Source: a virus
Length of the DNA stretch: 42,123 bases
IMG/VR virus record: IMGVR_UViG_3300030040_000052
Span: 1 to 42,123 of that record
Direction: 5' to 3' (one strand)
The notes under the pieces are model-generated. The model saw only the letters and a program-made list of their open reading frames with translations, ran no database searches and had not been told where the DNA came from. The translations under genes and the position numbers were made by a program. Within the stretch, counting starts at the first letter, position 1, and each line of letters begins with the position of its first letter. Below, one piece after another: positions 3,314 through 22,368 of the stretch.

Positions 3314-3456
3314 CTATGCCGCCGGATGAACCCGCTCCCTTGCCGGCTGCAAGACCAGCCTAGCAGGGAAGCGCCGTTTCGTAAATAGCCAGATGTGGAA
3401 TATCGTTTCTTAGGTGAACCATTTTGTTTCAGCTTGTTTCCAAGGAGATGTTTTTT

Positions 3457-3900
3457 GTGGAAATTTCGGATTTATTGTCAGAGCTGGATGCCCTTCGCGT
3501 TCAGCGCGGGATGTCCTATCAGGCCGTTGCGGATGCCTGCGGCGTGTCCAAAGCAACCATTTACCGCACCCTGACCGGGGCAACGGAACCGACCGTTCAG
3601 CTGGTCAAGCGGATTGAGGCCGCCGTACAGTATGTTCCGCCCTCTGCCCAGCAGCCGCCACCTGCAAGCTGCTCCAAAGAAGAATATGCCGAATTTCTAC
3701 GGGAAACCATCATTCGCCAGGACGAAGAATATTCCCGCCATGTCACCCAGCTGCAAACCCACTATAGCCTTTTGCGCCGCCAGGACAGAAGGTCAATCGC
3801 GGTGCTTGCCGCAGCTGTCACCGTCCTGGTGATATTCCTGGTCGTCTGGCTTGTGCTGGACATCCTTCACCCCGGGGCTGGCTGGATTGCCACCCCATAG
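3457..3900 (+). CDS. Membrane-anchored HTH (XRE-like) regulator, about 147 aa
   Basis: GTG 3457 lies 9 nt after AAGGAG (track ATGs 3424/3448 lack spacing); MSYQAVADACGVSKATIYRTLTG HTH; C-terminal TM IAVLAAAVTVLVIFLVVWLVLDIL. Confidence 0.75.
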   Translation: MEISDLLSELDALRVQRGMSYQAVADACGVSKATIYRTLTGATEPTVQLVKRIEAAVQYVPPSAQQPPPASCSKEEYAEFLRETIIRQDEEYSRHVTQLQTHYSLLRRQDRRSIAVLAAAVTVLVIFLVVWLVLDILHPGAGWIATP

Positions 3901-3909
3901 GAGGCCGCC

Positions 3910-5040
3910 ATGAATTGTGTAAAATGTAAAAAAGCCATCCCGGAGGATGGCATCTTCTGCCCCTACTGCGGCAAAAAGCAGCAGCCGGAGAAAAAAAAGA
4001 AAAAGAAGCGCGCCAACGGTTCCGGCACTGTGATACGCAAACCAGGAAACCGCTCCAAGCCCTGGGAGGCGCAGAAATCGGGAATCTATGTCGGTGCCTA
4101 TGCAACAAAATACGAGGCAGAGCAAGCCCTCCTGCGGCTGGCAGACCTTCCGATTTCGGAAACGCTGAATTTAACTTTCGAGCAGGTCTATCAGAAGTGG
4201 CTGCCCGTCCACGCCCGTTCACTGACGCAGTCCGGCATCTCTGGATATGAATTTGCCTACGCCCATTGCCAGCCACTGTACGACAGGGTGTTTCGCCGAT
4301 TGCGTGCAAGTGACTTTCAGCAGGTCATTATGGACATGGAGGGGCAAGGCTTGTCAAAATCAAGTTGCGAAAAGGCCGTGCAGCTTTTTGGTCAGTTGTC
4401 AAAGTGGGCGATTCAGGAGGAGATTTGCCACACGAATTACGCAAAGTTTGTCACCGTCTCTGCCCAGCAGAAAAGCACAAAGCAGCCGTTCACCGCCGGC
4501 CAGATTGAATCAATCCTAAAATCCCCAGAGCCAGCCGCCCAGATTGCCGCAATCCTGCTTGCCACCGGCTGCCGCCCCAACGAGCTTTTCGCCGCCGCCA
4601 CCGCAGATGCCCAGGAAAGCTATTTCATCTCCGGCTCAAAAACAGAGGCAGGCAAAAACCGCATTATCCCGGTTGCCTCCTTTGGCCTGCCCGCCTACCA
4701 ATCCCTCCGAGCCGCAGCCATTGCCAGCAGCTGCACCAGGCTGATTGACGCATATGGCGGTAATAAAACCTACCGCAACTTTTATAAACGAGACTGGCAA
4801 AAGCTGATGGAAAGTCTCGGCATAGAAAACATGGCACCCTATCATTGCCGCCACACCTATGCCACTCTAGCTGTCCAGTCCGGCATAAAGCCTGAAATTT
4901 TGCAAAAAATTTTGGGTCACGCCGACTATAATACTACCGTGGGAGTATACACCCACCTGGATAAATCTGAAATACTCCAGGAGGCAGCAAAGCTCACGGT
5001 TACAGACACGTTACAGACACGAAAAAATCACCCGGTATAA
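3910..5040 (+). CDS. int: Tyrosine integrase with N-terminal zinc ribbon
   Basis: CVKC..CPYC ribbon, Lys-rich linker, GSGTV..KPW arm-binding-like segment, C-terminal HCRHTYAT...LGHADYNTTVGVYTHL (R-H-R-Y catalytic signature). Confidence 0.95.
   Translation: MNCVKCKKAIPEDGIFCPYCGKKQQPEKKKKKKRANGSGTVIRKPGNRSKPWEAQKSGIYVGAYATKYEAEQALLRLADLPISETLNLTFEQVYQKWLPVHARSLTQSGISGYEFAYAHCQPLYDRVFRRLRASDFQQVIMDMEGQGLSKSSCEKAVQLFGQLSKWAIQEEICHTNYAKFVTVSAQQKSTKQPFTAGQIESILKSPEPAAQIAAILLATGCRPNELFAAATADAQESYFISGSKTEAGKNRIIPVASFGLPAYQSLRAAAIASSCTRLIDAYGGNKTYRNFYKRDWQKLMESLGIENMAPYHCRHTYATLAVQSGIKPEILQKILGHADYNTTVGVYTHLDKSEILQEAAKLTVTDTLQTRKNHPV
4999..5020 (+). repeat. Two tandem GTTACAGACAC copies (putative P-arm integrase sites) inside int 3' end
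   Basis: 4999-5009 and 5010-5020; same 11-mer recurs twice at 5263-5285. Confidence 0.5.
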
Positions 5041-5073
5041 TTGCATCAAAAAAGTTCAGAAAATAAAGAAAAA

Positions 5074-5107
5074 AGCCACGAAACACGAAGTTCCGTGGCT
5101 TCTCTTT
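5074..5107 (+). terminator. Hairpin terminator after int
   Basis: AGCCACG-13 nt loop-CGTGGCT followed by TCTCTTT. Confidence 0.5.
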
Positions 5108-5153
5108 GGTGACCCGCCGGGGACTCGAACCCCGGGCCCACTGCTTAAAAGGC
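5107..5153 (-). other. attP core: 3' half of tRNA-Lys(UUU) (anticodon loop to CCA), not a complete tRNA
   Basis: Minus strand reads ..CTTTTAA GCAGT GGGCC CGGGG TTCGAGT CCCCG GCGGGTC A CCA: anticodon loop, 3' anticodon stem, variable loop, T-arm, acceptor 3' strand; no D-arm or 5' acceptor upstream. Confidence 0.75.
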
Positions 5154-5262
5154 AAAATCGGTGGAATTTATGCGGTATAAAATAGGATTATTTCGCTATC
5201 ACAAGGAATAACAGCATATTTATATCGCAGAAAATTGCAAAGTGCCAGTATGTATTGTCTCA

Positions 5263-5285
5263 GTTACAGACACGGTTACAGACAC
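5263..5285 (+). repeat. Two GTTACAGACAC copies (putative P'-arm integrase sites)
   Basis: 5263-5273 and 5275-5285, same orientation as 4999-5020. Confidence 0.5.
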
Positions 5286-5286
5286 T

Positions 5287-5658
5287 TTAGCCGCCCATTT
5301 TGTTCAGAAGCCGCTTCAGTTCTCTCTTGGTTTCCTCGTTCAGTCCAGAACTGTCAATCGCTCGTTCCAGCTCGCCGCCGTGGTAGGAGTAGCCTCCATC
5401 ACTGGCATACCGTCCCATGCTGTCTCGGCGCTGGCTATAGGCTGGCATACCGATACCTCCCATACCGTCATTATAGCGGTAGTCCGGGTAGTCCCTCCGG
5501 CTGTACTGGCTGTAATCCCCCTGCTCGATGCAGTCGATTTTGCAAATAAGCGATGCCAGGTTTTTAGCTGTTCCAACAGTCTGCGTAGACAGCCCACGGT
5601 CTGCAAAGTTCTCTAGCTCCTCCATGGCAAGTCGTTTCAATTCCTTCAGTTTTTCCAT
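5287..5658 (-). CDS. Hypothetical 123-aa protein, helical ends with Tyr/Gly/Arg/Asp-rich centre
   Basis: ATG 5658 after AAGGAGGAAAAGAGAAT; centre DYSQYSRRDYPDYRYNDGMGGIGMPAYSQRRDSMGRYASDGGYSYHGG. Confidence 0.75.
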   Translation of the reverse strand: MEKLKELKRLAMEELENFADRGLSTQTVGTAKNLASLICKIDCIEQGDYSQYSRRDYPDYRYNDGMGGIGMPAYSQRRDSMGRYASDGGYSYHGGELERAIDSSGLNEETKRELKRLLNKMGG

Positions 5659-5676
5659 ATTCTCTTTTCCTCCTTG

Positions 5677-6024
5677 CTATATGCTTTCTTGAATGTATCT
5701 ATACAGTGTGTCCAGTTCCTTTTTGCCAACCTTCATGGTCATTTTCACCACCGGGATTTTGATGGGCATCGGGTCAGCGCCGATATAAGGCTTTGCAGCG
5801 TTGTACAGAGCATCCACGTCAACCGTTCCATGCTCCTTGTCATACACACCAAGAGCCTTGAGCATAGGGTGGTCTGCGTACTGGGTGATAATGTCCGGGA
5901 TTCTGGCAGTCAGGAGCCCGCCAGCTCCGGCAATCAGAACCTTGTCCCAGCCGGACAGACTGGGGGCAATCTCACGGTCAATGAACTTCGCAATTCCAGC
6001 CTGAATATTTTCCATCGAAATCAT
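5677..6024 (-). CDS. Hypothetical 115-aa protein
   Basis: ATG 6024 lies 7 nt after GGAGGT (track start 6039 lacks an RBS). Confidence 0.75.
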   Translation of the reverse strand: MISMENIQAGIAKFIDREIAPSLSGWDKVLIAGAGGLLTARIPDIITQYADHPMLKALGVYDKEHGTVDVDALYNAAKPYIGADPMPIKIPVVKMTMKVGKKELDTLYRYIQESI

Positions 6025-6076
6025 GGAAAGTACCTCCATTTAAGATATGGGGCGGTAAAAACCGCCCCACGCATGG

Positions 6077-6724
6077 TTAGTTACCGTTGCAGCAGCCACC
6101 GCCGCACTTGGGCAGGGGGTTGTACAGGGTCTGAGCGGTAGTGCCGGTACCGGTAGTCAAATCAGCCACCATCTTGGGATAGAAGGTCGCATTTGCGTAG
6201 GTCACAATGGCGTTGTCACCACAGCAGCGCCGCTCTACCTCCATCTTGATATCCTTGGACAGCTCGGAACGCACAGCTTCCACGTCTTGGCGAACGAGAG
6301 TAAAGCTATCCTCTGTCCGCTGGTTGTGCACCGCCTGATTGCACAGGGACTGGCGAATGTCCTTTAACTGACCGTCAACATAGGCGTACAACTCCAGCGT
6401 TTTCTGGTCGTTATAGATGTTGGCTTTCAGAAGAGAAATTTCCGCATCCTTGGCGGCAATGTCACGTTCTTTGTCCATGTCGTACCGGGTGACAGGCATG
6501 TTGTCGCTGCAACAGCCGCCAAAACCATTCCAGCCACCCAAGCCAAAGCCACCGTAGGGAACAGCGGGAATCACTGGAGCAGCGGCCTGATTCCGATTGC
6601 CCATAGCCAGTGCGCCAAGACCGCCAAGGGAGTTCAGCACGCCCAGAGACAGCCCGGCAATACCGGTGCCGAGACCAGCACCAGCTACACCCTTGCTTGC
6701 ATAGTCCTTTTCAACTTCAACCAT
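6077..6724 (-). CDS. Hypothetical 215-aa protein: glycine-zipper hydrophobic N-terminus, coiled coil, three CC-x-x-N motifs
   Basis: ATG 6724 after AAGGAGGACTTCTGT; GVAGAGLGTGIAGLSLGVLNSLGGLGALAMG; CCSDN, CCGDN, CCNGN. Confidence 0.8.
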   Translation of the reverse strand: MVEVEKDYASKGVAGAGLGTGIAGLSLGVLNSLGGLGALAMGNRNQAAAPVIPAVPYGGFGLGGWNGFGGCCSDNMPVTRYDMDKERDIAAKDAEISLLKANIYNDQKTLELYAYVDGQLKDIRQSLCNQAVHNQRTEDSFTLVRQDVEAVRSELSKDIKMEVERRCCGDNAIVTYANATFYPKMVADLTTGTGTTAQTLYNPLPKCGGGCCNGN

Positions 6725-6742
6725 ACAGAAGTCCTCCTTAAA

Positions 6743-6771
6743 ATATTAGAGGTGGCCACCTTCTGTGATAA
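6743..6771 (-). promoter_or_regulatory. Cassette promoter TTATCA-17-TAATAT with GGTGGCCACC palindrome in spacer
   Basis: Minus strand TTATCA = comp(6766-6771), TAATAT = comp(6743-6748); perfect 10-bp palindrome at 6751-6760. Confidence 0.45.
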
Positions 6772-6778
6772 TAATAGC

Positions 6779-6817
6779 AAAAAACCCGGCAAGCAGATTC
6801 TCACCTACTTGTCGGGT
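6779..6817 (-). terminator. Rho-independent terminator ending the lysis operon
   Basis: Minus strand ACCCGACAAG-loop-CTTGCCGGGT followed by TTTTTT. Confidence 0.7.
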
Positions 6818-6843
6818 TCCCGTCATAAAATTGTCAGGCGTGT

Positions 6844-7080
6844 TCAAAAATCAATGTTTTCTGGAAGTATATCGCTGTACTTCTGCACGCTCATATACTT
6901 CCTTTTCATTTCTTTGATTCTCCTGTTCAGCGTTGCAAGGGAGATGCTGCAAGCGTGGCACTGCTTGACTTGGCTCCATCCGGCAACTCGGGTTCTCAAG
7001 ATTCTTTCGTCTTCCGGCGTAAGGCACGCCAGCCGAACAAATTCTTCCAGAAAAACCCGGTTCCATGGAACCGCATCCAC
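6844..7080 (-). CDS. Small HTH regulator (sigma-70 region-4/LuxR-like), 78 aa
   Basis: GTG 7080, 8 nt after AAGGAGG; LTPEDERILRTRVAGWSQVKQCHACSISLATLNRRIKEMKRKY. Confidence 0.7.
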   Translation of the reverse strand: MDAVPWNRVFLEEFVRLACLTPEDERILRTRVAGWSQVKQCHACSISLATLNRRIKEMKRKYMSVQKYSDILPENIDF

Positions 7081-7083
7081 TCG

Positions 7084-7287
7084 CTATGCCTCCTTGTTGT
7101 AATTCGCGCTGGAAATACCCAGCAGCGTTCCGAGAAGGGTATCAACAGCGGTAATGGTTCCCACCACCTGTTCGGAGCAGGGCAAACCCCACACCGCCGC
7201 AATGGCGGCGTAGAACGTAGCCGCAGCAGGAAGCAGCACCAGTGCTACCCACTTCAGAATGTCGTACATTTTGTTGCTCATTTTCAT
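7084..7287 (-). CDS. Holin (Dp-1-type), 67 aa
   Basis: AAGGAGGAAAAACC-ATG; MYDILKWVALVLLPAAATFYAAIAAVWGLP..ITAVDTLLGTLLGISS, adjacent to endolysin. Confidence 0.8.
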   Translation of the reverse strand: MKMSNKMYDILKWVALVLLPAAATFYAAIAAVWGLPCSEQVVGTITAVDTLLGTLLGISSANYNKEA

Positions 7288-11771: not shown

Positions 11772-14700
11772 TTACCGTTTATGCCACGGCGCTTTTTTCA
11801 GGCCGCTTGCTGCATATCCGTTGTCATAGTACAGCGCATCCTTTTGGCTGTCGGAAATCGGAAGGCTGTTAATAAGGGAAAGAATTTCCTTCTTCTTGCT
11901 GCCGCTGTCCGTCTTGCCGTCTCCGTCTGCATCCACGCCGGTGCATTCCGTTCTTCTGCTTCTGTAGTCAGCAAACACATTCGGCTGAATCCCGGTTTCT
12001 TCAATGCTTTTGCCCAGCTCGTCAAGCTCTTTCGTGTACGCAAGAACCTGCTCGCTGCTCAAATCGGAATCCGGGTGCTGCTTTTGCCAGCGGTAGGCGT
12101 TCACAGTTTCTTCTGCTTCCTCCGCGTCCTTGCCGCCATAGCGCACAAGCGCATTTTTGAGCTGCTGTTCCGTGATTTCGCCGTCAATAAACGCTTCCTT
12201 CACTTCGCTGTAGTTTACGTCAAGGTCTTTCTTGCAGCCCCATTCTCGCACGGTTTTTTTTGCGGCATCTTCACTTTTTCCGCCGTACCGGACAAGCATT
12301 TGCGCCGCCTTACTCTCCGTCAGGCTGTTGTTCAGATAAGAATCTCGGATTTCATCGTATTCAATGCCGGTGTCTCGGACGCTGTTCCACTGCGTTACCT
12401 GTTCTTCTGCGTCCTTTTTTCGCATCCCAAGCACCCCGTTCAGCTGTTTGATGGCTGCTGTCCGGTCGATTTCGCCATTCAAATACTGTTCCTTTACCGA
12501 TTCCTTGCTGCCGCCGGGAACCTTCTTCAGCTGCTTTTCAAAGGCGCTTTGAATTTGCTTCCGGTTGAAATTCCCCTCGGCTTCAATTTCGGCAAGAATG
12601 CGTTCCGCCTCTTTCGCATTTCCAGCGGCCTTTTCCTTTGCCGCCTGCCGAATCCGGCTGTCCTGGTCTGCCAGCGCGGTCACAATGGCGCTTTCAAACT
12701 TCTGTTCCGTGGAATAAGTGGTTTTCAACCGTTCCTGTTCTGCCTGACTTCCATTCACAATGGCGTGGTAAAGACGCTCTGTTTTTCCGTTGCTCCCTCG
12801 GAAAATAGCGGGAATGTTTTCCTGAATCCCGTCCCAGATAGCCTTTCCTCTGGTGTAGGAATCGCTTGCTCTGGGTGTGGATACCGTTTCATAGGTGTTC
12901 TTTACCCCTCGCAATTCACGCAGAACATTCTTTAGCGGGATGCCGCCCATGTTCAGCAAACCGGCTGCCGCGTCCAGTGAAGCAATGCCGAATTTCCCCA
13001 GGTTCTCTTTCTTGGCTTCCTCGTCCTCCGGGTCTGTTTCCAGGAATTTCTTCCAGCTGTCAGTTGCTTTTTGGGTTGCGTTGTACATATCCGACACTAG
13101 ACTCATGTCGTTCCGCTCCACGTCATAGCCCTGGACGATGCTCCAAACATCCTTAAAGCCGGGGTAATAGGTGATTGGGTTTACCCCGTCCACCAGTTCC
13201 GAAGCAAGGCTGCTCAGATATTTTTCCAGATATGTCTTTTCTTCATCGTCATCCCGCGCAGCGTATACAAGGCTTGCCAACAGCGAGTTCAGAATCAGTG
13301 CCGCCGCAACCGAAGAGATTTTCTTTCCGGCGGTTTTGAAGTTCTTCCCGCGGATGTCCTGCACCGCACTGCCCATCATATTGATGGTGGTGGTAGGTTC
13401 CGCCATGAAACTTGTCAACATTTTCATGTAAACGCTCTTGCTTCTCATGTTGCCGCTTCTGGAAAACACGCTGTCATACACCTGGGTTTGGGTGATGCAC
13501 CTGGTAAAGAGCTTTCCTGCTTCCGTTTTCAGTGCCTCGCCGTTAAGCCCCGGGTGCTCTGCCTTGGTCTGCCGCTTGGCAGCTTCCCACATGGCAACCC
13601 ATGTGATTTTGTCCATCTGTTCCGGCATCCAACCGCCGAATTTGTCCACGGCGGCCATAAAGCTTTTTCCATTTTCCCCGGAAAGTAGCTCTTGGGTGCT
13701 TCTGCCCATGTCCGTGTCAAACCGCCCGATTTCCTTCAGGCCAACCACCGGCGCATATTTTTTCATTTCCTCCCAGGTTGCGGAAATTCCGCCCGCGCTG
13801 TCCACCTTGGAGCCTACGAAATACTTTGCATCGATGATGGAAAACGCCCGCCCTACCGCGCTTGGCTGCTGAATAGCCACGCTCAGGCTTGCAGATACCG
13901 CCGCCTTCTTGAATCCGCTCAAGAACATATTGTAAACGGTCTCCCGGTTATCTGCCCTTACGCCGCCGTTCACGTCCTTTAGGAAGGTGTCTACATAGTC
14001 CACCGATGCTTCCCCGTGTTTCCGCAGCATCTGCTGCCGGATGCCGTCACCGGAAGTGTTGTAGTTGTACACCCTGTAGAAGTCCTCCATGGGCAGCGCG
14101 AAGTTGTGATACATGGCTGTGTCGTTCACATGGTTTGCCCAGGTTTCCATAAAACCGCGCAGCTCCACAGCGTTGCTGGCGTTCTTGTCCGTGGGCTTCA
14201 TGTGTCCGGCATTTTTCTGGCGGTTGCCGGGGGATTCCTGACTGTCTCGCACCCGCTCAGACCGGATGGCGGAGGATTTAATCGGCCAGTAATCCTTTTC
14301 TTTTGCTTTGCTCACGCCATACAGTGCCCGGCTCACCTCGTTGTTCTGCTCGGCGCACACGGTGGAAAGATATTCCTGCATTTCGTTTGCAAAGGCAATC
14401 TGTTCCGCCGTCAGCCCAAGAACCTGACCGTTTCGGATTTGGATAACCGTTTCCAGCGCCAGAACGTGAGAGGAATAATCCGTGTAATCCTTGCCGTTCC
14501 GCTTGCTCCCGGTGAGAATAAAGCCTCCTTTCGTCAAGTGTTTGAGATACTGCTCCCGCTTCGATGCCGCATACAGGTTCATCCGCTCCTGCAAATCCAG
14601 CGCCACCTTTTCGCCGTCTGCCATTTCCACTTCCACCAGATTGTTTTCCCACTGGTCGAAGTGGTATTTGTCCATACACCCCAGCATAATGGCTCTTGCC

Positions 14701-17700
14701 TTTGCAAAGTCCCGATACCAGCCGTCCTCACCGTTGCGCAGGTTTTCATAGAGCTGCATCATAACGTTGCTTCCCATGCGCTCAAAGGCATAATAGGGCT
14801 TTTCGTTGTTCCAGCTCAGTTTTTCCATTGTTTTCTTTAGCTTTCCCAGCGCCGGTGTCTTGTCCGGCTGTTTTTGGAACTCTGCCATTGCTTGCTTGGC
14901 TGTCTCTGCCCACCCCTGCTTTAAATTTTCGCCGTGGAGCTTGTTTGCATTTCGGATGGTATTCAGGATAGCCGTATAAGCATTGCGAACTGCCTGTAGC
15001 TGCTGGATGTTCAGTTTACCATAGAAACTATCTCCAATGGCTTCTTTGGCATCGGAAATAAACTCAAGAATTTTGTCATTATATTCCTGGGTAAACACCC
15101 CCTTATTGACTTCCGCCAAATCGGTGTATGCCTGTTGCAGCCGCTCCAGGGCATTCTGAACCGTGGCATTTCGCCGTTCCAGCACATTTTGCAGCTTTGC
15201 TTCCGTCTCCGCAATGGCCTGGGCGTTCTTCACCGGGTCTTTCCCCAGCCGTTCCAGCTGTGCGCCGTACCGGGCGATCACTCGGCTGGCGGTCTCCTGT
15301 GCGTCCTGCTGCTTGATTGTAGCAATGGACTGCATTGCCATGGTCACCGCAGGCTGCAAGCTATCCGGCACATACAGCGTCTTTGTGGGGTTCAGCAGCC
15401 GCCGGTTGAGGTCAGTAAGCACCCGCTCCAGCTTAAAACGCTCCTCTGTCTTTCTGGCACTTTCCACCTTGGCCTTTGCCGCTTCCTGCTGCGCCTGCAC
15501 TTTCTTTTCCAGCCTGTCAATATTCCGCCCACTGGTGTCATACTCCCGCAACAGCCGCTTAAATTCCCGTTGCCAGATTGCAGCATCTTCCTCGGTTTTG
15601 GAAAGTTCTTCTTTGATTTTTTCAAGGCCGTTATCCTGTTCCCCGTATTTCCGCAGCAGACGAATAATTTCTTTGCTCATTGCCGCAATCTTTTCGGTGT
15701 AGCTGTCTTCTAGCTTATTCATTTCACGCTGGTGTGCGGTAGCAATCTGCTCCCGTTCGGCTTCATAAACTGCCTTCATAGCCTTCGCTTCCGCATCGCG
15801 CTGATAGCGGTAGTCAGAAAGCGCTTGTTCCACGGCTTTCTTTCCGTCCCTCCGTGCCTGTGCGGCCTCCTGAAGCGCCGCATTGCGCTCCTTTTTCAGC
15901 TTTGCGATTTCCTCTTTCAGCTTGTCAGAAACGCTCTCAACCGGCTTTGCATCCCAGGCCATTGCAACGATTTTTTCAATCAGGTCTTTTCTTTCCGCAT
16001 TTTGATAATATGCCGCTTCCATGTCAGATGTGCTCCTGCTGTCCTTTAGCTTCTGCACCAGTTCCGCAAGTGCTCCAGGCATATTCATATCGGAAAGCCC
16101 AGAATCAAACTGGTCTGCAAACTGCGCCGCTGCCTCCTGCCAGAACTGGTCAAGGATGGTGTTGGCATTCTGGTCAATAATAATGCTCCCGCGAATTGCC
16201 TTCTGAAAATCCTTTACGCTTCCATAGCTGTATTCAATTTCACCAATCTGTCCCTCACTCAGCCGCACACGCCGCTTTGCCATCCAGTCCAGCACTTCCT
16301 GGGCGTATTCATCCCGCTGTTCCTTCCGGTGCTCCTCCAACCAGTCAGCGGCTTTCCCGGCTCGTTCCTCAATCCCATCCCAGGACACATCTGCATCCCT
16401 GGAAATGTAGTTGTAGGTGTCTTCCAGCAGTGCTGCCAGTTCAGTGGTTCTGCCATTGGCGTTCCCCTCGCGGATAAGCCGCGCCGCCAGCTGGTTTAGG
16501 CTGTTTCTATCAAGGGTATAGTCTTTGTTGCCCCGCTTCTGAATCTGGACCAGCTTTTTCAAGTATTGGATTTCCGTCTCCATCCGCTCCATTTGCTCCT
16601 CGGCACTAACCCGCCGGGAGAAGCGAATGTTATCCATTTGATTTATTAGTTGCTGCCGTTGGGCTTCGTTCCCCTCCTCATAGAGCTGGTAGGGGATGCC
16701 AAGTTTACTTAGCTCCTCTAGTAGCCTCTGGCTTGCAGTATCAGGGGCGATTACATTCTTAATTTCATCAAATCCAACCGCCCGGGCAGGTTTCGCTTCA
16801 AAAATGTTCACAGGCATTTGAGAGATGTCGGAAAGAAGCTGTGCAACTTCTTGTGCCGTTTGGGAGTTTACTTCCATGTTGTACTTTGCAAATATACGCT
16901 GTACATTTTCCGGCGTATATCCTCTGCTCTCTCCAATTTCAGAAACGATTTCACCAATGCTATCCATGCGAATAAGCTCGTTGTCTGACCATCTGGATTT
17001 TGCGTTTGCTTCATCAATGGTGCTCATTAGCTTGTACAAACGGTTGCCAAGGTCATCCTGAATATTGCTTATTTGCTCATCGGTCAGATTTTGCAGCCGC
17101 CCTTCCAACTTGTGCATATCCGCAATGCTTTTGAACCGTTCTGATGTGGCAGCACGCAAAGTTTTTACACCGAAAAAACCGGATACATTTTTGGTGTTCC
17201 TGCCATTTTCAGACCGCATAGCCTTTACAATGCCTTCTAGCGTTGCAGCAATGTGTGTCTCCTTAAAAGACCGCCGTCCTCCAGATGGAGTATACCGTTC
17301 TTTCCCATTGTACACACCCTTACTTTTTTCTACGCCGCTGAAAAGCTCTTTTACCCATTCTGCAAATGCGTCCTTGTCAATAGCGGAGTCAACATTCTTT
17401 TTCATAGTTTCGGCATCAACAGTGGTGTATGTTTCTGTCGTATTAGCCGTACCATTTAAATAGCTGCTTAGCCTTCTGAGCACACCACTCATGCGAACTG
17501 TGTTTTTTGTCATTCCGGGGTATGCCCTTTCAAGTTCAGCTCCATGCTCCTCAAGCAGCGTTTTCAGAGGAATATGTTCAAATACTTCCGGCTTTACATT
17601 TCCCAGAACATTCCACACGTTCAGCAGCTTATCTTCTGTCTCGTTGTTAATTGCATTTACAATTCTTTCTTCCTGCCTGGTTTCTTGCTCGATGTGCTTC

Positions 17701-20700
17701 CCTTGTTCCTCCAAGAAAGCAGCTTTCAGCGCATAATTGTTCAGTAGACTGTCAACAACGCCTTTTTCACCGCTCTCACGGTTTAGTCTGTCCTCAATAT
17801 CGTACCGCACCACGTCAAGGTCATGCTGGAAGTATTCGGCAACTTTCCCTTTTAGTTCACCCAGCCGGTTATACACTTTATCAGTTGCCTTTCTGTCTGC
17901 TTCATATTCAATTTTTGGAACCACAGGTGTCCACGCATCAGCAGAATATACCGCATTATAACGGCTCACTTTCGGGTCAATGGTTTCTTTGCCGAATACA
18001 ACAGTAATGTCTCCGAAATTGGTGTGAGGAATCCCCGCCTTGGTGATTGCAATACTCGGCATCGGAAAGCCGCCTAATTTCAGTGTTTTCAGGAACTTTT
18101 CTTCCGTCAAGTTATGAAGCGCAACAAGGGTTTTCTCCTTTTGACCGTTGCGGGAAGATTTTAAAGTGCCCTCCGGGGCGTTATTTTTTCGCCCATCCTG
18201 CAACTGGTAGTTCACCACCGCATCACTGGCGGCATCGGCAAAGGCGTTCAGCGCTTCTTCACTGCTTCGGATGGTGTCTCTTGCCAGCTGGGCAATGCTG
18301 CTGTCCGGGTTCAGCCCCCGGTAGGCTTCCTTCAGCCGTTCCACCAGCCCTTGCAGGAATTTCTTAATCTTCTCCCAAAGGCTCATGTCAGTCTGCTGCA
18401 ACCGTGCAGAAATCCGTTCCATTACGTCCGTGTCCGTCAGCGCCGTTTCCATCATCTCCGCCACAACCTCGCTGTATGCCAGGTCATTCAGTTCCTCGGC
18501 ACTCAGCTCCTTGTAGCCCTGCCGTTTCAGCGCTGCCGCCTTGGCGGCAATCAGCTCATTGACATTCACATCGGTTCCCACGGCTTCAAACAGGATTTCC
18601 GTAAACCGGTGGAATTTTTCAGGACTGAACTCCTCCACAAAATGGGTAAACTCATGGCTCAGGGCAAAGGCCATCACACCCTGACCGTCTGCACCGGCAT
18701 TCAGGTCAACCCAAATGCTTCCGTCCTCCAGGTAAATGCTGCCGTTTTCCATTCCGGCATTCCGTTCTTTTTCGGTGCTGGCATAAACGGTAATGTTCAC
18801 TCCCATTTCCGAAAGCAGCCGTGCCGCATCCATGCCGCTCTTTTGCTGCTCATTCAGCGATTCAATATTTTTGGCGCTGTCCTTCACCGTCAGGCTGCCT
18901 TTCTGTGCCGCGTGCTCTCCCCGGTCAATTGTCTGCTGCTTCTGCCGGTTTTTTGCCCTCTCGCTGTCTCTGCCAGCCTCCCAGGCAGTTTGCCGGGTAG
19001 CTTCATCCAGCCGCATTGCGTTGCTGTCCCGTCCTATGGCGTTCATGGCAACGCCGTTTCTGCCCGCGTTGTAGGCATCCAGTACTGCCACCGCGAAATT
19101 GGAATTGCTCAGTTGACTGTTTTTGGATGCTTCCAGAATGGTGTTTCCGGTCTGGGCATCAACCCCGATGGTTTCAATGGCCTTAAAAAGCCGCGCTGTC
19201 CCATAGCTGCCGAATTTCACATCCTTGGCGTTTACCTGTTTGCCCTCGTCCGTCAGCAGCACCATACCGCCGCCACCGGCGGAAGCAATTTCCGAGATGT
19301 TTACCGGGCTGCTGTCGCTGATAAGATAGCTCTGCCCTTCGGCTTCTTCGTCATAGTCAAAGCTGCTCCCATCCACGGATTGTTTACCCAGATTATACGC
19401 CAAATCCACCTGTCCAACAGTAAGAGAGCTAATCCCTTCAATGTCAGCAATGTCGATTCCTTCCTGCCCGGCCTTATAGGCTTTTGCCATCTCCTCCACA
19501 TATCTGCCTCGGCTCTGCCCTGGGTAATACATCTGCTCGATTGCAAAAGCGTGTTCCTTCCCAAAGATGCTTTCCGCCGCTTCACTCAGCTGGTCATGAA
19601 CCGCCGCTTTGGCGCTCTTTTCCGTTTCCGTCTCCCGCGTGCCGAAAATTTCCGGTGCCAGGGTATAGGTTCCGATATTGCGCACCCAGTTGCTTCCGCC
19701 GCTCTTCGAGCCAGCACGGCTGATGTCGTTCAGCAGCGTGTCTGTAATCTCCTGGTTTTGCGCCATAGCATACCGTTCCGACATGGTGAGTTTTTCACCC
19801 GTCAACTTTTTCACAATGCCGCTGGCAATCAGCCCCGGATTTTTCTCTGCACCCAGCTGCTCTGCTTGTGCTGCAATCGCTTCTGTTACATTGGAGACAT
19901 CCTGCTTTGTCAGCGCCGCAATGTTTTCCTGATAGATGTTGGTTAGCTTGGCGTAGTCGCTGCCCCGCTTGCCTAAATTCCCTTTTTCTGCTTTTGACTG
20001 TAATTTTGGAACGTCCTTATTTTTGGAGCCCAGCTCCACCGCATTTTTCAGAATTTCGTCATAGCTGCCGCTGTCCACCATATCTTTGCCGATTTTTCTT
20101 GCATCACTGGTGGTAGCATTCACAATGCCGCCAGTGCCGCCCATCAAGCCGCCGGAAACAGCGCCGCCGTAGAACGACCAGAACGTGTCAATGGCCTGGT
20201 TAATAAATGCCTGTTTTTGGGCTTCCTCCCGGCTCATCCCCCCCTGCTCAACAAGCGCCTGGATGTTGTTCCGATAGTCGCTGTTCTTTCCTTCCAGCAG
20301 GGCATCCGTAATCAGGTTTGCAATGTCCGAGGCCACTTCTTCGCTGCCTTCGTTCAGCGCCTGGATAAGCGTTTTCTTTGCCCAGTCGCGGAAACCGGTT
20401 ACGTTGCCCTCCAAAAACTGGCTTGTGAAGTATTCAATGGAATATTTCTCCGTGGCCGCTTCAATCAGGCCGGAGGCAATTGCGCCCAAGCCAATCTGTG
20501 TGCCGGAAGCGCCTTTTTCGTATAGCTCCTGCGCCCGCTGGCTTGCCGCAGAACTACCCATAATCCAGGTGTACCCATTTCCAAACAGCGTAGCACCCAA
20601 TGCGCTGTCAGCGCCGGACATAACCGCCTGATAGGTGTTTGCCGCCACCGCGCCCCAGAATGGAGAATCAATACTGTCCACAATCTCCTGCGCCGTAATG

Positions 20701-22358
20701 CCGCGCACGGTGTTTGCATAATCAGAAAGTTCATGCCCGGCGGAGTAGGGATTGAATTTTCCGGTAATGGCGCTGCCCACATCCGCCACAGCGGAGGAAA
20801 CGCCGCCAAAAATATTGGCAGGGACAGTAGCCGCATTCATAACCGCCTTGCCAATCGCACCGGATGTGCCGTAGGTAATCTCTGTGTTGTAATTTTTGAA
20901 ATCGCTGATTCTCTTGTCAAGGGTCACTTCCAAATCGCTCAGATATTGTTTGGCTTCGCCCAGTCCGTAACGATTCAGAAGGAAATAGTACATTTTCAGC
21001 TCGTTGTCGGCAAGCCAGTTGTACCGGCTGATTGAAGTACCGCTCAAAGCAGCCTGTGCGTCATATTCGGTTTTATTCGCAAGGTATCGGCTGACCGGGT
21101 CATTCCGCTCAACCAGCCCTTTTTCCATGCCTGCCTCAGCATCTTCCTGAAAACCGTCCATATACCGGTATGTTTCATACCGCTGTACCTTGTCTTCCTG
21201 CGCTGCAATCAGCCCGTTGCGTTCGCTGGCATCGGCATCATTTTTAAGATTGTAATAAGCTGCTTTTGCCGCATCATAGTTTTTCTTGGCGCGGTTATAT
21301 GCCGCCGAATATTGCGTAATATCTTCTCCGGTAGAATTTGCCATATTGTTTTGCGCATCTTCAAGCTGCTGCTGCGCCTGGGTAAACGCAAGATAGGCTT
21401 CTTCAATCTTCTGCTGTTTTTCTTCCTCCGCCGCGTTTTGTTCTTCTCCTGTGCTGTCAGCCTTTGTTGCCTCTTTTTTCGTCTGCTTCGCGGCATCGTC
21501 CAGCTGCTTTTTCGCTGCCTCAAGGTTTTTCTCGGCTTCCAGATACCGCGCCTCTACGCCGTCAAAGTCACCGTCTGGCACATTGTAGTAGTCGTTTTCC
21601 GCAGCCTTAAAGGCATCTTCCGCAGCAGCATATGAAGCTTTCGCCCGTGCAAGCGGGCTGCTGTAGTCAGTGGCACTGATTTCCGGTACACCACCCGGCA
21701 GCTGTGAACCAAGTGCCTGATACTGTTCAGTGAAGCGTTCCCACCGGGCTTTTGCGTCCGCATAGTCGCGGCTGTCCGGCTGATAGCGTTTCTGGGCATC
21801 CTCCCAGTATTTCCGCTCTTTTTCGCTCTGTTGCAGCAGTTTTGCCGCGTCAGTACGCAGTTTGATGGTTTCTGAACTTTCCTTTGTGCCGGTCACATCC
21901 TGGTTGGCATATTTCTTCGGCTCAAGCAGCGGACGTTTCGGCTTTTCTGCCTGTGAGCCTTTCAGAAGTGTGTCGATTTTGGAAATCCGTGTGCTGTTTT
22001 GCTGCCAAAGCGGGTCTTTGGAAGATAGCCATTTGTTTTCATTTTCCAGCTGGCTTTTCTCGTCTTGAAGAAGCAAAGCATCCTTATAGCTTTTCAGCTG
22101 CCCCAGGTAGTCGTTAATCCGCTGGTTCACCTGGGGTGTGCTTCCGGCTGAAAACTGTGTAGCGGTAGAAGGGCGGCTTCTTGCACGCAGCTGCTCTGCG
22201 TAGGCATCGTCCATGGATTTCAGTTTGGAAACAGCCGCCCGATCCAGTGTATTTGCAACAAACTGTTTTGCTTGGTTATATCGTTCTGAACCGCCGCTTG
22301 TCGTTGGCTTCGCCAATTGCTGTGCAACAAATTCTTCTGCGTTTTTCTTCCTGGACAT
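11772..22358 (-). CDS. Giant 3,528-aa internal-virion / ejection 'polyvalent'-type protein
   Basis: Uninterrupted ORF; ATG 22358 7 nt after GTGAGGG (track start 22364 is TTG); position between nozzle-like and fibre genes; Gly-rich hydrophobic block, HEFTH site, coiled coils, C-terminal repeats. Confidence 0.9.
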   Translation of the reverse strand: MSRKKNAEEFVAQQLAKPTTSGGSERYNQAKQFVANTLDRAAVSKLKSMDDAYAEQLRARSRPSTATQFSAGSTPQVNQRINDYLGQLKSYKDALLLQDEKSQLENENKWLSSKDPLWQQNSTRISKIDTLLKGSQAEKPKRPLLEPKKYANQDVTGTKESSETIKLRTDAAKLLQQSEKERKYWEDAQKRYQPDSRDYADAKARWERFTEQYQALGSQLPGGVPEISATDYSSPLARAKASYAAAEDAFKAAENDYYNVPDGDFDGVEARYLEAEKNLEAAKKQLDDAAKQTKKEATKADSTGEEQNAAEEEKQQKIEEAYLAFTQAQQQLEDAQNNMANSTGEDITQYSAAYNRAKKNYDAAKAAYYNLKNDADASERNGLIAAQEDKVQRYETYRYMDGFQEDAEAGMEKGLVERNDPVSRYLANKTEYDAQAALSGTSISRYNWLADNELKMYYFLLNRYGLGEAKQYLSDLEVTLDKRISDFKNYNTEITYGTSGAIGKAVMNAATVPANIFGGVSSAVADVGSAITGKFNPYSAGHELSDYANTVRGITAQEIVDSIDSPFWGAVAANTYQAVMSGADSALGATLFGNGYTWIMGSSAASQRAQELYEKGASGTQIGLGAIASGLIEAATEKYSIEYFTSQFLEGNVTGFRDWAKKTLIQALNEGSEEVASDIANLITDALLEGKNSDYRNNIQALVEQGGMSREEAQKQAFINQAIDTFWSFYGGAVSGGLMGGTGGIVNATTSDARKIGKDMVDSGSYDEILKNAVELGSKNKDVPKLQSKAEKGNLGKRGSDYAKLTNIYQENIAALTKQDVSNVTEAIAAQAEQLGAEKNPGLIASGIVKKLTGEKLTMSERYAMAQNQEITDTLLNDISRAGSKSGGSNWVRNIGTYTLAPEIFGTRETETEKSAKAAVHDQLSEAAESIFGKEHAFAIEQMYYPGQSRGRYVEEMAKAYKAGQEGIDIADIEGISSLTVGQVDLAYNLGKQSVDGSSFDYDEEAEGQSYLISDSSPVNISEIASAGGGGMVLLTDEGKQVNAKDVKFGSYGTARLFKAIETIGVDAQTGNTILEASKNSQLSNSNFAVAVLDAYNAGRNGVAMNAIGRDSNAMRLDEATRQTAWEAGRDSERAKNRQKQQTIDRGEHAAQKGSLTVKDSAKNIESLNEQQKSGMDAARLLSEMGVNITVYASTEKERNAGMENGSIYLEDGSIWVDLNAGADGQGVMAFALSHEFTHFVEEFSPEKFHRFTEILFEAVGTDVNVNELIAAKAAALKRQGYKELSAEELNDLAYSEVVAEMMETALTDTDVMERISARLQQTDMSLWEKIKKFLQGLVERLKEAYRGLNPDSSIAQLARDTIRSSEEALNAFADAASDAVVNYQLQDGRKNNAPEGTLKSSRNGQKEKTLVALHNLTEEKFLKTLKLGGFPMPSIAITKAGIPHTNFGDITVVFGKETIDPKVSRYNAVYSADAWTPVVPKIEYEADRKATDKVYNRLGELKGKVAEYFQHDLDVVRYDIEDRLNRESGEKGVVDSLLNNYALKAAFLEEQGKHIEQETRQEERIVNAINNETEDKLLNVWNVLGNVKPEVFEHIPLKTLLEEHGAELERAYPGMTKNTVRMSGVLRRLSSYLNGTANTTETYTTVDAETMKKNVDSAIDKDAFAEWVKELFSGVEKSKGVYNGKERYTPSGGRRSFKETHIAATLEGIVKAMRSENGRNTKNVSGFFGVKTLRAATSERFKSIADMHKLEGRLQNLTDEQISNIQDDLGNRLYKLMSTIDEANAKSRWSDNELIRMDSIGEIVSEIGESRGYTPENVQRIFAKYNMEVNSQTAQEVAQLLSDISQMPVNIFEAKPARAVGFDEIKNVIAPDTASQRLLEELSKLGIPYQLYEEGNEAQRQQLINQMDNIRFSRRVSAEEQMERMETEIQYLKKLVQIQKRGNKDYTLDRNSLNQLAARLIREGNANGRTTELAALLEDTYNYISRDADVSWDGIEERAGKAADWLEEHRKEQRDEYAQEVLDWMAKRRVRLSEGQIGEIEYSYGSVKDFQKAIRGSIIIDQNANTILDQFWQEAAAQFADQFDSGLSDMNMPGALAELVQKLKDSRSTSDMEAAYYQNAERKDLIEKIVAMAWDAKPVESVSDKLKEEIAKLKKERNAALQEAAQARRDGKKAVEQALSDYRYQRDAEAKAMKAVYEAEREQIATAHQREMNKLEDSYTEKIAAMSKEIIRLLRKYGEQDNGLEKIKEELSKTEEDAAIWQREFKRLLREYDTSGRNIDRLEKKVQAQQEAAKAKVESARKTEERFKLERVLTDLNRRLLNPTKTLYVPDSLQPAVTMAMQSIATIKQQDAQETASRVIARYGAQLERLGKDPVKNAQAIAETEAKLQNVLERRNATVQNALERLQQAYTDLAEVNKGVFTQEYNDKILEFISDAKEAIGDSFYGKLNIQQLQAVRNAYTAILNTIRNANKLHGENLKQGWAETAKQAMAEFQKQPDKTPALGKLKKTMEKLSWNNEKPYYAFERMGSNVMMQLYENLRNGEDGWYRDFAKARAIMLGCMDKYHFDQWENNLVEVEMADGEKVALDLQERMNLYAASKREQYLKHLTKGGFILTGSKRNGKDYTDYSSHVLALETVIQIRNGQVLGLTAEQIAFANEMQEYLSTVCAEQNNEVSRALYGVSKAKEKDYWPIKSSAIRSERVRDSQESPGNRQKNAGHMKPTDKNASNAVELRGFMETWANHVNDTAMYHNFALPMEDFYRVYNYNTSGDGIRQQMLRKHGEASVDYVDTFLKDVNGGVRADNRETVYNMFLSGFKKAAVSASLSVAIQQPSAVGRAFSIIDAKYFVGSKVDSAGGISATWEEMKKYAPVVGLKEIGRFDTDMGRSTQELLSGENGKSFMAAVDKFGGWMPEQMDKITWVAMWEAAKRQTKAEHPGLNGEALKTEAGKLFTRCITQTQVYDSVFSRSGNMRSKSVYMKMLTSFMAEPTTTINMMGSAVQDIRGKNFKTAGKKISSVAAALILNSLLASLVYAARDDDEEKTYLEKYLSSLASELVDGVNPITYYPGFKDVWSIVQGYDVERNDMSLVSDMYNATQKATDSWKKFLETDPEDEEAKKENLGKFGIASLDAAAGLLNMGGIPLKNVLRELRGVKNTYETVSTPRASDSYTRGKAIWDGIQENIPAIFRGSNGKTERLYHAIVNGSQAEQERLKTTYSTEQKFESAIVTALADQDSRIRQAAKEKAAGNAKEAERILAEIEAEGNFNRKQIQSAFEKQLKKVPGGSKESVKEQYLNGEIDRTAAIKQLNGVLGMRKKDAEEQVTQWNSVRDTGIEYDEIRDSYLNNSLTESKAAQMLVRYGGKSEDAAKKTVREWGCKKDLDVNYSEVKEAFIDGEITEQQLKNALVRYGGKDAEEAEETVNAYRWQKQHPDSDLSSEQVLAYTKELDELGKSIEETGIQPNVFADYRSRRTECTGVDADGDGKTDSGSKKKEILSLINSLPISDSQKDALYYDNGYAASGLKKAPWHKR
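11907..11939 (-). other. DxDxDG calcium-binding-like motif GVDADGDGKTD near giant ORF C-terminus
   Basis: Hand translation of comp(11907-11939). Confidence 0.5.
12075..12497 (-). repeat. Three tandem ~46-aa protein repeats in giant ORF
   Basis: VKEQYLNGEIDRTAAIKQLNGVLGMRKKDAEEQVTQW / IRDSYLNNSLTESKAAQMLVRYGGKSEDAAKKTVREW / VKEAFIDGEITEQQLKNALVRYGGKDAEEAEETVNAYRW. Confidence 0.7.
18642..18656 (-). other. Zincin-type HExxH (HEFTH) codons in giant ORF
   Basis: comp(18642-18656) = CAT GAG TTT ACC CAT, context AFALSHEFTHFVEEF. Confidence 0.6.
20085..20867 (-). other. Gly/Ala/Ser-rich hydrophobic block of giant ORF (about aa 500-760)
   Basis: e.g. VPANIFGGVSSAVADVGSAITG, GAIASGLIEAA, FYGGAVSGGLMGGTGGIV. 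Confidence 0.55.
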
Positions 22359-22368
22359 ATCCAAACCC

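Follow-up and report, generated by a model that had tools for sequence, protein, structure and literature searches.

The window, by which we mean the whole 42,123-nt stretch of viral DNA analysed here, belongs to a temperate human-gut phage of Oscillospiraceae with a P22-like portal, and the slot next to its attP holds what is best read as a cargo (accessory) operon of putative function. Three minus-strand genes, in the order A, B, C, form a separately controlled unit between the lysis operon and the attachment site, and the features of the region are as follows.

3910..5040, plus strand: tyrosine integrase, convergent with the cassette, with two GTTACAGACAC repeats (4999-5020) in its 3' end
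5069..5105, minus strand: terminator-like hairpin just past the tRNA-like CCA
5108..5155 (about), minus strand: attP core resembling a tRNA 3' end, with an anticodon-loop-like CTTTTAA, a T-arm (GGGGTTCGAGTCCCC) and CCA, as read from the sequence
5263..5285, plus strand: two further GTTACAGACAC repeats, beginning 2 nt past the C stop codon
5287..5658, minus strand: gene C (C123), 123 aa, helical ends around a Tyr/Gly/Arg/Asp/Ser-rich centre
5677..6024, minus strand: gene B, 115 aa, AlphaFold pLDDT 85.5
6049..6068, minus strand: GC-rich stem-loop between A and B (GGGGCGG-loop-CCGCCCC), without a U-run
6077..6724, minus strand: gene A, 215 aa, characterised from relatives, composition and AlphaFold
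6733..6739, minus strand: Shine-Dalgarno sequence of gene A, AAGGAGG, a strong ribosome-binding site as read from the sequence, conserved in relatives
6750..6761, minus strand: palindrome AGGTGGCCACCT, at about +3 to +14, downstream of the extended -10
6771..6779, minus strand: putative extended -10 promoter element TGCTATTAT, from conservation among relatives
6780..6821, minus strand: intrinsic terminator closing the lysis operon, -23.5 kcal/mol, z = -5.19, followed by a U-run
6844..7080, minus strand: p78, a 78-aa helix-turn-helix protein resembling sigma-70 region 4, with weak HTH matches only
7084-7287: Dp-1-type holin, by Pfam/PHROGs match

Boundaries and control signals of the cassette

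The first-pass annotation had described three minus-strand reading frames here, and these are real genes, with relatives for all three and a dN/dS of 0.07-0.16 for C against its close kin. Upstream of them the lysis operon ends in p78, which starts 4 nt past the holin stop and forms the conserved left border of the cargo slot: it is kept in group 1 (the p78-type phages, including that of the window) both with A-B-C and with an alternative array, and is missing from group 2 (L065-L098). The strong terminator that had been placed behind the lysis operon is borne out by its folding energy, since none of 200 shuffles equalled its stability, and group-1 relatives carry an equivalent hairpin and T-run. 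A separate promoter had been proposed as well, and a conserved promoter region does exist, but the hexamers given for it (TTATCA-17-TAATAT) are probably wrong, as no more than 4 nt separate their -10 from the Shine-Dalgarno sequence and relatives do not conserve it; conservation points instead to the extended -10 element at 6771-6779. Across 18 diverged upstream regions (T)GnTAnnnT keeps its G, TA and T without exception, with an A 6 nt downstream, and transcription likely starts at the corresponding A at 6764. This -10-like element is conserved without a recognisable -35 hexamer. In group 2 the genes immediately upstream of A are divergently transcribed, so that A there needs a promoter of its own.

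The palindrome just inside the presumptive transcript is replaced in relatives by AGCTGGCCAGCT, AAACCGGCCGGTTT or ATCAG-GAAA-CTGAT at the same site, with all five base pairs altered on both sides and a covariation score reached by none of 500 shuffles. It would serve either as an operator or as a hairpin in the 5' RNA, the RNA fold being weak for the window's own copy. A repeated phage-repressor operator was considered and rejected for the window, where the palindrome occurs as a single copy. An Rfam search of 4900-7200 gave no match. Further downstream, an open frame for B extends to 6039, and the ATG at 6024 is favoured because GGAGG at 6033-6037 fits it and gene callers agree. Of 64 distinct relatives, about 60 have a stem-loop 3' of gene A comparable to that between A and B, the distant ones differing in sequence.

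At its other end the cassette stops close to the attachment site, as had been claimed, with the tRNA-like core about 130 nt from the C stop codon; ARAGORN reported no whole tRNA there. Four exact copies of GTTACAGACAC flank the tRNA-like segment (4999-5020 and 5263-5285) where 0.26 would be expected by chance, and the pair at 5263..5285 likely represents arm-type integrase binding sites of the P' arm. In the circular form the hairpin at 5069..5105 is the sole terminator downstream of the cassette. In most loci with room a convergent tyrosine or serine integrase lies 20-450 nt beyond the cassette, the cassette remains attP-proximal in phages with different integrases, and in integrated copies it sits at the edge of the prophage with host genes directly after the third gene.

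A fixed pair and an exchangeable third gene

The cassette is common in Oscillospiraceae phages and consists of a fixed pair of novel proteins with a swappable third gene. Relatives of A fall into 3723 protein clusters (90% identity) at E<=1e-3, with 623 representatives at 50% identity, and occur on 363 viral contigs; prophage copies of the cassette are found in Oscillospiraceae/Clostridia genomes, among them MAGs of Gemmiger, Oscillibacter and Dysosmobacter. Within INPHARED, A or the commonest third gene (C1) occurs only in unannotated faecal contigs, and C in none. No family had been recognised for the three products on first reading, and our searches agree. Neither A, B nor C matches Pfam, NCBIfam or PADLOC, nor do A and C match PDB; nothing in PHROGs is significant for A or B, and the match of C to phrog_28802 (function unknown, 4e-6) is the sole PHROGs family found for the cassette. 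Profile searches of PDB with A (a close and a diverse set), B and C returned generic coiled-coil noise only.

In the product of gene A, a hydrophobic glycine-zipper N-terminus is followed by a variable Pro/Gly/aromatic linker and then by a long helix; the conserved C-terminal domain contains Cys (E..R.C.DN.IV.Y.N.TFY.K...YNPLP) and has a Cys cluster as its tail. The zipper is the most conserved part of the protein; it reaches a maximum 19-residue Kyte-Doolittle score of 1.57, borderline for a membrane helix. A basic residue always follows the hydrophobic segment, and some of the A-like proteins (160-245 aa) carry Thr-rich C-terminal tails that look extracellular. The eight cysteines are paired (71/72, 167/168 and 211/212 among them), and C168 is the only one near-invariant across the family. 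Of the earlier description of A, the Gly-rich hydrophobic N-terminus and paired cysteines thus stand, while the coiled coil is plausible only, the heptad pattern being weak. AlphaFold places a long helix at about residues 80-167 with low confidence (pLDDT 45, too poor for a structure search).

The product of gene B is a soluble alpha/beta protein with no cysteine, export signal or membrane segment, and we found 69 relatives. Its confident model has no fold match in PDB by Foldseek (best E 0.67), and its matches in BFVD are uncharacterised gut-phage proteins only. Among 125 related loci, B directly follows A in every one with room, and the two stay together as an obligate pair even where relatives are only about 32% identical. 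In group 2, B has diverged faster than A (28% vs 61% identity), and its divergence appears to track the N-terminal half of A, a trend confounded by shared ancestry. For example, loci L100 and L115 are 76% identical in B and 72% in the N-terminal part of A, while the C-terminal part of A is only 25% identical, and no pair combines B identity above 60% with less than 40% in the N-terminal part of A.

The first-pass annotation had treated all three genes as a unit. The adjacency of A and B upholds part of this, but the third gene is swapped among at least four unrelated types: mostly a half-ferritin (C1), otherwise a DUF7841 protein, a His-rich peptide or the Tyr/Arg/Asp/Gly-rich type of the window. 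The composition reported for the centre of C agrees with residue counts (10 G, 9 Y, 6 D, 6 S and 6 R in 49 residues), the conserved blocks of the protein are AKNLASLICKLDCI and RRDSMGRY, and it has 14 relatives. We do not retain the suggestion of a spore-coat or condensate-forming protein, which was drawn from composition. C has no signal peptide or lipobox. In the window a recombination joint separates B from C, and the window's type of C stands behind the alternative array, not A-B, in most relatives; C has been joined to A-B by recent recombination and has a history separate from theirs. C1 proteins are 60-116 aa with one helix pair and an invariant E-x6-Y...ExxH, in which E14, Y21, E46 and H49 are unchanged across 18 diverse copies, a ferritin-type di-iron half-site. 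Their profile matches bacterioferritin, rubrerythrin and sulerythrin (best 4.8e-7), and one copy scores above the Pfam Rubrerythrin cut-off. Other third-gene variants have His/Glu-rich tails. C123 of the window has no E...ExxH di-iron or other metal-site motif and no PDB or Pfam ferritin match, and literature searches on DUF7841 gave nothing relevant. An N-terminal docking helix common to the third-gene types was considered and was not significant (hhalign probability 7%; HMM E about 1).

A slot that is always filled

Slot contents were scored in loci chosen by p78 alone, with an alignment of p78 relatives as query; a single p78 protein as query found none. Among the 68 p78-selected loci with room, 16 hold A-B-C1, 50 hold the alternative array, two are hybrids (x237 then C1) and none is empty. 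The variation is replacement, not presence or absence. The alternative array comprises x237, a 237-aa protein with an A-like layout, and the 144-aa x144, and usually ends in the window's C type. Homology between A and x237 went undetected (hhalign probability 0.7%), and a suspected likeness of x144 to the BclA C-terminal domain was unconfirmed by Pfam.

Temperate phages are known to carry morons and lysogenic-conversion cassettes, such as those described by Juhala and Hendrix in HK97/HK022 and lambda bor and lom. Similar to these, the cassette is an additional transcription unit, preceded by a terminator and by what conservation suggests is a promoter of its own. It is placed between late genes and attP, at the prophage edge in integrated copies, and its contents differ between otherwise similar phages. 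Unlike morons, A-B is kept across very diverged phages, and the slot is never empty in the p78 group, which is easier to square with a function that the phage needs than with an optional moron. Base composition is also not atypical for the phage, with a GC of 0.533 against 0.524 +/- 0.027 in same-size windows, and we counted this against a moron or prophage-expressed reading. The lysogenic-conversion interpretation first put forward for this locus is partly supported.

In layout only, the cassette also resembles gtrABC, the O-antigen conversion cassettes of P22 and Shigella Sf phages, with three genes beside attP and opposite int, two of them conserved and the third phage-specific; P22, a gtrABC carrier, shares its portal type with the source phage. 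The likeness does not extend to homology, as A and B match neither the GtrA family nor glycosyltransferases in Pfam or NCBIfam, where C is unmatched too. Moreover, A has no more than one membrane segment, B none, and the host is a monoderm relative of Clostridium without O-antigen.

Putative activity at the host envelope

We tentatively favour, as a predicted function, a prophage-expressed accessory operon in which an abundant, membrane-anchored, Cys-rich A acts at the host envelope. The operon would be transcribed independently, most likely from the prophage, and A may be produced in excess over B and C because a stem-loop follows A in nearly all relatives. A would insert into or onto the cytoplasmic membrane by its glycine-zipper N-terminus, oligomerise through the long helix and then display the conserved Cys-containing C-terminal domain, with B as its cytoplasmic partner or chaperone and C as an add-on from a shared pool. 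The likeliest effect would be an altered envelope or physiology of the lysogen, as phage exclusion or as protection against stress or metals, and a role in virion assembly would be unlikely. Half-ferritin and His-rich third genes look like host physiology, not lysis or virion functions, and so support the accessory reading. Counting against it are the borderline hydrophobicity of the A N-terminus, the poor AlphaFold model of A and the shared ancestry that confounds the tracking of A by B. In addition, the cassette shares a strand with the lysis genes that precede it, and anti-terminated late transcription could pass the terminator.

That arrangement is the starting point of the main rival to the prophage-expressed reading, a late egress or lysis accessory in which A (or x237) carries out a third lysis step suited to this host's envelope, comparable to the role of spanins or LysB in other systems, with expression at the end of infection and possibly activated by p78. 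We consider this unlikely overall. In its favour, the cassette lies directly after endolysin, holin and p78; the sigma-region-4-like p78 weakly matches a PHROG late activator; and the promoter just downstream of the p78 gene shows no recognisable -35 hexamer. Lysis genes typically come as non-homologous alternatives at a given site, holins of several types (Dp-1, holin_1, holin_5_2) occur among these phages, and the p78-selected slot is always filled. As in two-component spanins such as lambda Rz/Rz1, A may combine an N-terminal hydrophobic anchor (of borderline score), a long helical region (in a low-confidence model) and conserved Cys, its gene lies just after those for holin and endolysin, and x237 has this possible i-spanin layout too. 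However, an outer-membrane lipoprotein partner was not found embedded in, overlapping or adjacent to A. B and C have neither lipobox nor signal peptide, and an Rz1-like candidate within A (41 aa, 6427-6552, 'ATTC' motif) was rejected, embedded frames being unconserved among 20 relatives. Oscillospiraceae/Clostridia hosts are monoderm, and spanins belong to diderm hosts. The strong terminator and separate promoter intervene between p78 and A, divergently transcribed genes separate the cassette from the lysin in group 2, and there is no sequence match to spanins, nor of A, B or C to holin families in Pfam and PHROGs. Ferritin-like and His-rich third genes are ill-suited to lysis.

These third genes instead invite a reading as a metal or redox-stress module at the cytoplasmic face of the membrane, in which the Cys clusters of a cytoplasmic A C-terminus bind metal or buffer oxidants while B and the third gene help to protect a strictly anaerobic host. 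The commonest third gene retains a di-iron half-site with profile and Pfam Rubrerythrin matches, other variants have His/Glu-rich tails, A has eight paired cysteines, the basic residue always follows its hydrophobic segment, and a cytoplasmic complex is simplest where B and C have no export signals. We nevertheless regard this module as decidedly improbable, for a metal-site motif is missing from the window's third gene, DUF7841 variants are not known to be linked to metals, C168 alone is near-invariant in the A family, the Thr-rich tails of some A variants look extracellular, and A and B gave no match to a metal-binding family. The third gene of most relatives, not C of the window, resembles half-size ferritin-like proteins such as the encapsulated ferritin EncFtn, but in contrast to that system no encapsulin shell gene or targeting peptide was seen.

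A toxin-immunity, abortive-infection or bacteriocin-like pair, with A as a glycine-zipper pore-former and B as its antidote, has a slim chance in our estimate. It would account for the strong conservation of the zipper, the faster divergence of B in group 2 and the hot-spot-like attP-proximal slot with its alternative contents. But the PADLOC-DB defence models gave no match for A, B or C at E<=1, A is longer than small pore toxins and has a conserved non-membrane domain, and the stem-loop after A predicts more toxin than antidote, the wrong stoichiometry. It is more improbable still, to the point of near-dismissal, that the cassette codes for part of the virion, for instance a fibre or decoration protein whose gene lies away from the main structural block. 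The long helix and small conserved C-terminal domain of A are fibre-like, high-expression signals are present, and in P22 the tailspike gene lies near attP; against this, the hydrophobic Gly-rich N-terminus ill suits a fibre, PHROG structural families are unmatched, and the terminator, separate promoter and ferritin-like or His-rich neighbours all speak otherwise.

Oscillospiraceae are abundant and hard to culture in the human gut and, to our knowledge, their temperate phages are almost unstudied. The cassette occupies an always-filled slot beside the integration site with proteins of no known domain, one of which (B) has an unmatched fold. If expressed in the lysogen, it could be a common way for prophages to give major gut bacteria an altered surface, stress tolerance or susceptibility to phages; if late-acting, it could represent an unrecognised step in phage exit from these cells. 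The two-plus-one layout and the half-ferritin as usual third gene offer concrete experimental handles.

It is conceivable, if a long shot, that A-B and the non-homologous x237-x144 are two versions of one undescribed function that these gut phages cannot do without, a new kind of membrane-active entry or exit machine for monoderm hosts. This idea draws on the layout of A, which is like that of a class-I fusion protein or a spanin in that a fusion-peptide-like, glycine-rich N-terminus is combined with a long helix and a C-terminal domain knotted by Cys. It draws further on the dedicated partner, on an exchangeable and often predicted iron-binding third subunit, and on possible control via a shared TGGCCA palindrome.

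The cassette and its attachment site

The three minus-strand genes between the lysis genes and attP (A, B and C) are a fixed pair followed by a swappable third gene, in a slot that also carries alternative arrays; a familiar genomic architecture here houses undescribed protein families. At about 42 kb, the window is the genome of a gut phage. Most of its genes are on the minus strand, and they include those for a P22-like portal, a large terminase and a capsid. The features around the cassette are these:

Features flanking and including the cassette
Lysis block: M15 endolysin with a PG_binding_1 domain; p117, a small protein; holin of the Dp-1 type
6844-7080, minus: p78, a 78-aa helix-turn-helix protein, directly after the holin
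6780-6821, minus: terminator, -23.5 kcal/mol, z = -5.2, with U-run
6077-6724, minus: gene A, 215 aa
5677-6024, minus: gene B, 115 aa
5287-5658, minus: gene C, 123 aa
about 5108-5155, minus: tRNA 3'-end-like segment (attP core)
5069-5105, minus: terminator of the tRNA-like segment
3910-5040, plus: tyrosine integrase, convergent with the cassette

The strong terminator that the first-pass annotation saw closing the lysis operon is thus borne out, as is its placement of the cassette beside attP. ARAGORN finds no complete tRNA at the tRNA-like segment, as expected for an attP core, and around this core GTTACAGACAC occurs in four exact copies (chance expectation, 0.26), two at 4999-5020 within the 3' end of the integrase gene and two at 5263-5285. 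These repeats are probably the arm-type sites of the integrase. The right-hand pair starts 2 nt beyond the C stop codon, and the cassette thus directly adjoins attP.

The same position recurs among relatives. We gathered 125 loci through A (4 from an encoding-contig look-up, 80 on viral contigs and 41 on genome contigs) and scanned them with HMMs. Most loci with room have a convergent integrase within 20-450 nt, tyrosine in some and serine in others, and in the integrated copies L002 and L106 host genes directly follow the cassette. Genome records place the hosts in Oscillospiraceae and other Clostridia (Gemmiger, Oscillibacter, Dysosmobacter, CAG:110), which are monoderm. Four integrated relatives with a serine integrase (L002, L046, L126, L130) keep a fragment of about 60 aa from the integrase C-terminus beside the cargo at the prophage-host junction. 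The attP crossover thus seems to fall within the 3'-terminal part of the serine integrase gene, in which case integration would change the integrase C-terminus.

A fixed pair and a swappable third gene

On sequence evidence, A, B and C are real genes. A 90%-clustered collection yields 3723 relatives of A at E ≤ 1e-3 (623 representatives at 50% identity); B has 69 relatives and C has 14, with C differing from its close relatives at dS 0.13-0.40 and dN/dS 0.07-0.16. None of the three matches Pfam, NCBIfam or PADLOC, their sequence profiles match nothing in the PDB, and the sole PHROGs match, that of C, is to a family without an assigned function; the earlier failure to recognize a family therefore stands. 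Among annotated phage records only unannotated faecal contigs were recovered. The earlier compositional remarks were also right. Residues 12-42 of A are hydrophobic and Gly-rich, with a maximal 19-residue Kyte-Doolittle score (1.57) that is borderline for a membrane helix; a Pro/Gly/aromatic linker of differing length among relatives follows, and AlphaFold predicts a long helix at about residues 80-167 with low confidence (mean pLDDT 45). The cysteines of A are residues 71/72, 128, 167/168, 207 and 211/212. Across 34 diverse members, the best-conserved parts of A are the N-terminal motif (A/S)S.G.A.AGL.TGI.G..LG.LN, the most conserved of all, the C-terminal signature E162..R166.C168.D170 N171..V174.Y176.N178.T180 F181 Y182...Y201 N202 P203, and the terminal Cys cluster. 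The model of B is confident (pLDDT 85.5), has no fold match in the PDB (best E 0.67), and in BFVD matches unnamed gut-phage proteins only. C has helical ends around a centre of 49 residues (10 G, 9 Y, 6 D, 6 S, 6 R), with AKNLASLICKLDCI and RRDSMGRY as conserved blocks.

The earlier picture of a self-contained three-gene cassette holds for A and B but not for the third gene. Among the 125 loci, B lies directly after A in every one that has room, even where A is at 32-40% identity. When L100 is compared with L115, identity is 76% for B, 72% for the N-terminal part of A and 25% for its C-terminal part, and no pair combines B above 60% with an A N-terminal part below 40%; this is suggestive, and only that, of B divergence tracking the N-terminal half of A more than its C-terminal domain. 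The third gene in most loci is C1, a helical protein of 60-116 aa. Its E14, Y21, E46 and H49 do not vary across 18 diverse copies, one copy scores above the Pfam cut-off for Rubrerythrin, and in the PDB its profile matches bacterioferritin, BfrB, sulerythrin, symerythrin and rubrerythrin (best 4.8e-7); C1 is therefore a half-ferritin. Elsewhere the place is taken by C2, a DUF7841 protein, or by a short protein with a His/Glu-rich tail, while C3, the type found in the window, follows A-B in close relatives only. No significant homology was found among these types. A ferritin-like label fits the third genes of relatives but not C. The half-ferritin, the His-rich variants and the Cys pairs of A would suit a cytoplasmic metal or redox module, a reading we consider quite unlikely. 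That the cassette is a toxin-immunity pair is graded weaker, as improbable, and that its product is a virion component weaker again, as highly improbable.

The slot and its signals

Surveying the slot without selecting on A, through an alignment of relatives of p78, its left border, gave 80 viral loci, 68 of them with at least 2.5 kb downstream. The slot holds A-B-C1 in 16 of the 68 and x126-x114-x69-x237-x144-C3 (x237 and x144 have 237 and 144 aa) in 50, a count that takes in two variants, one with a different integrase and one with an internal deletion; in two hybrids x237 is directly followed by C1, and no slot is empty. C3 is thus typically the last gene of the alternative array, whose members all fall in PHROG families of unknown function. 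Since the window and its close relatives differ by at most 1% of DNA in A and B but at the dS noted above in C, a recombination joint lies between B and C. The layout of x237 is that of A (hydrophobic N-terminal segment, Gly/Trp-rich stretch, helical region with a CCC motif, Cys-rich C-terminal end), with no detectable homology between them.

Upstream of A, 18 diverged relatives share an invariant G-n-TA-nnn-T, which is TGnTAnnnT in the window's group of p78-type phages (TGCTATTAT at 6771-6779), and an adenine six nt downstream of this -10-like element (6764 in the window), followed by a palindrome, an A/T-rich spacer and a strong Shine-Dalgarno. No -35 hexamer is recognizable by eye. The -10 first assigned (TAATAT, 6744-6749) is 4 nt away from the Shine-Dalgarno and lacks conservation among the relatives without p78, the second group; we take it to be mis-assigned. 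The alternative array has the same terminator-plus-TGTTATTAT module in front of it, and the putative promoter is therefore a property of the slot rather than of its contents.

The palindrome reads AGGTGGCCACCT in the window (6750-6761) and AGCTGGCCAGCT, AAACCGGCCGGTTT or ATCAG-GAAA-CTGAT in relatives. All five pairs vary on both sides, and the covariation score was reached by none of 500 shuffles, with slid controls much lower, a pattern that could come from a hairpin in the 5' RNA or from an operator bound by a dimeric protein. The RNA form is weak in the window, where the element has a single copy, and the self-complementary GGCC centre favors recognition at the DNA level. The similar ATCTGGCCAGAT lies upstream of x237, and this TGGCCA-centred theme hints at a shared regulator of A and x237. 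p78 resembles sigma-70 region 4 or LuxR, starts 4 nt past the holin stop, sits immediately upstream of the promoter and is conserved whichever array follows; it could be an activator or repressor of the slot. In about 60 of 64 distinct relatives, A is followed by a GC-rich stem-loop that lacks a U-run (6049-6068 in the window) and that has unrelated sequences in distant ones; a stem-loop after the first gene is the usual layout where the first product is made in excess over the rest.

Two further observations concern these upstream regions. x237 is preceded by ATCTGGCCAGAT or GGTGCGCAAC (L127 4786-4829; L137-L216), and GGTGCGCAAC is also found upstream of A in L112. In the relatives without p78 (L065-L098; for example L070 5773-5997), the A promoter has in front of it two or three tandem copies of the 11-nt repeat CAnAnATGTCC, spaced by about one helical turn. 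The copies lie beside a divergent gene whose product, judged by eye, may be a ribbon-helix-helix protein, and they may be a regulator-binding array.

Proposed function and neighboring genes

From the insulation of the cassette, its own signals, its position, the A-B pairing, the swappable third gene, the alternative arrays and the stem-loop, we tentatively propose an operon that would be transcribed independently and is probably active in the prophage. A would be its abundant component, with the glycine-zipper N-terminus as an anchor in or on the membrane and the helix as the means of oligomerization, and with B as a soluble partner and the third gene as an exchangeable add-on, to the effect of altering the envelope or physiology of the lysogen. 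The main rival, a late role in egress, draws on the adjoining lysis genes, on a layout of A and x237 that recalls spanins and on the slot never being empty, but a terminator and separate promoter intervene, genes upstream of A in the phages without p78 are divergently transcribed, the hosts are monoderm and a lipoprotein partner is lacking; we regard it as unlikely, and on the last two counts the cassette does not class as a spanin. Among known systems, its layout is nearest to morons, or lysogenic-conversion cassettes, and more narrowly to gtrABC of P22-like phages, which also adjoins attP with two conserved genes and one variable. A-B-C has no homology to gtrABC, and the host has no O-antigen.

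The lysis block itself shows fine-scale mosaicism, as close relatives combine three holin families (Dp-1, Phage_holin_1, Phage_holin_5_2) with nearly the same endolysin (window 7084-7287; L001, L126, L136). A quarter of the genome is a single 3530-aa ORF (11772-22364, minus), residues 1402-1582 of which match the PBECR5 nuclease domain, replaced by ART-PolyVal in the relative L126; it looks like a polyvalent protein, a class proposed to be delivered into the host by some phages and conjugative elements. Adjoining the integrase gene, a repressor-like HTH_3/HTH_31 protein (3424-3900, plus) ends in a hydrophobic segment, LAAAVTVLVIFLVVWLVLDIL, and so may be membrane-anchored, which is unusual in CI-type repressors.
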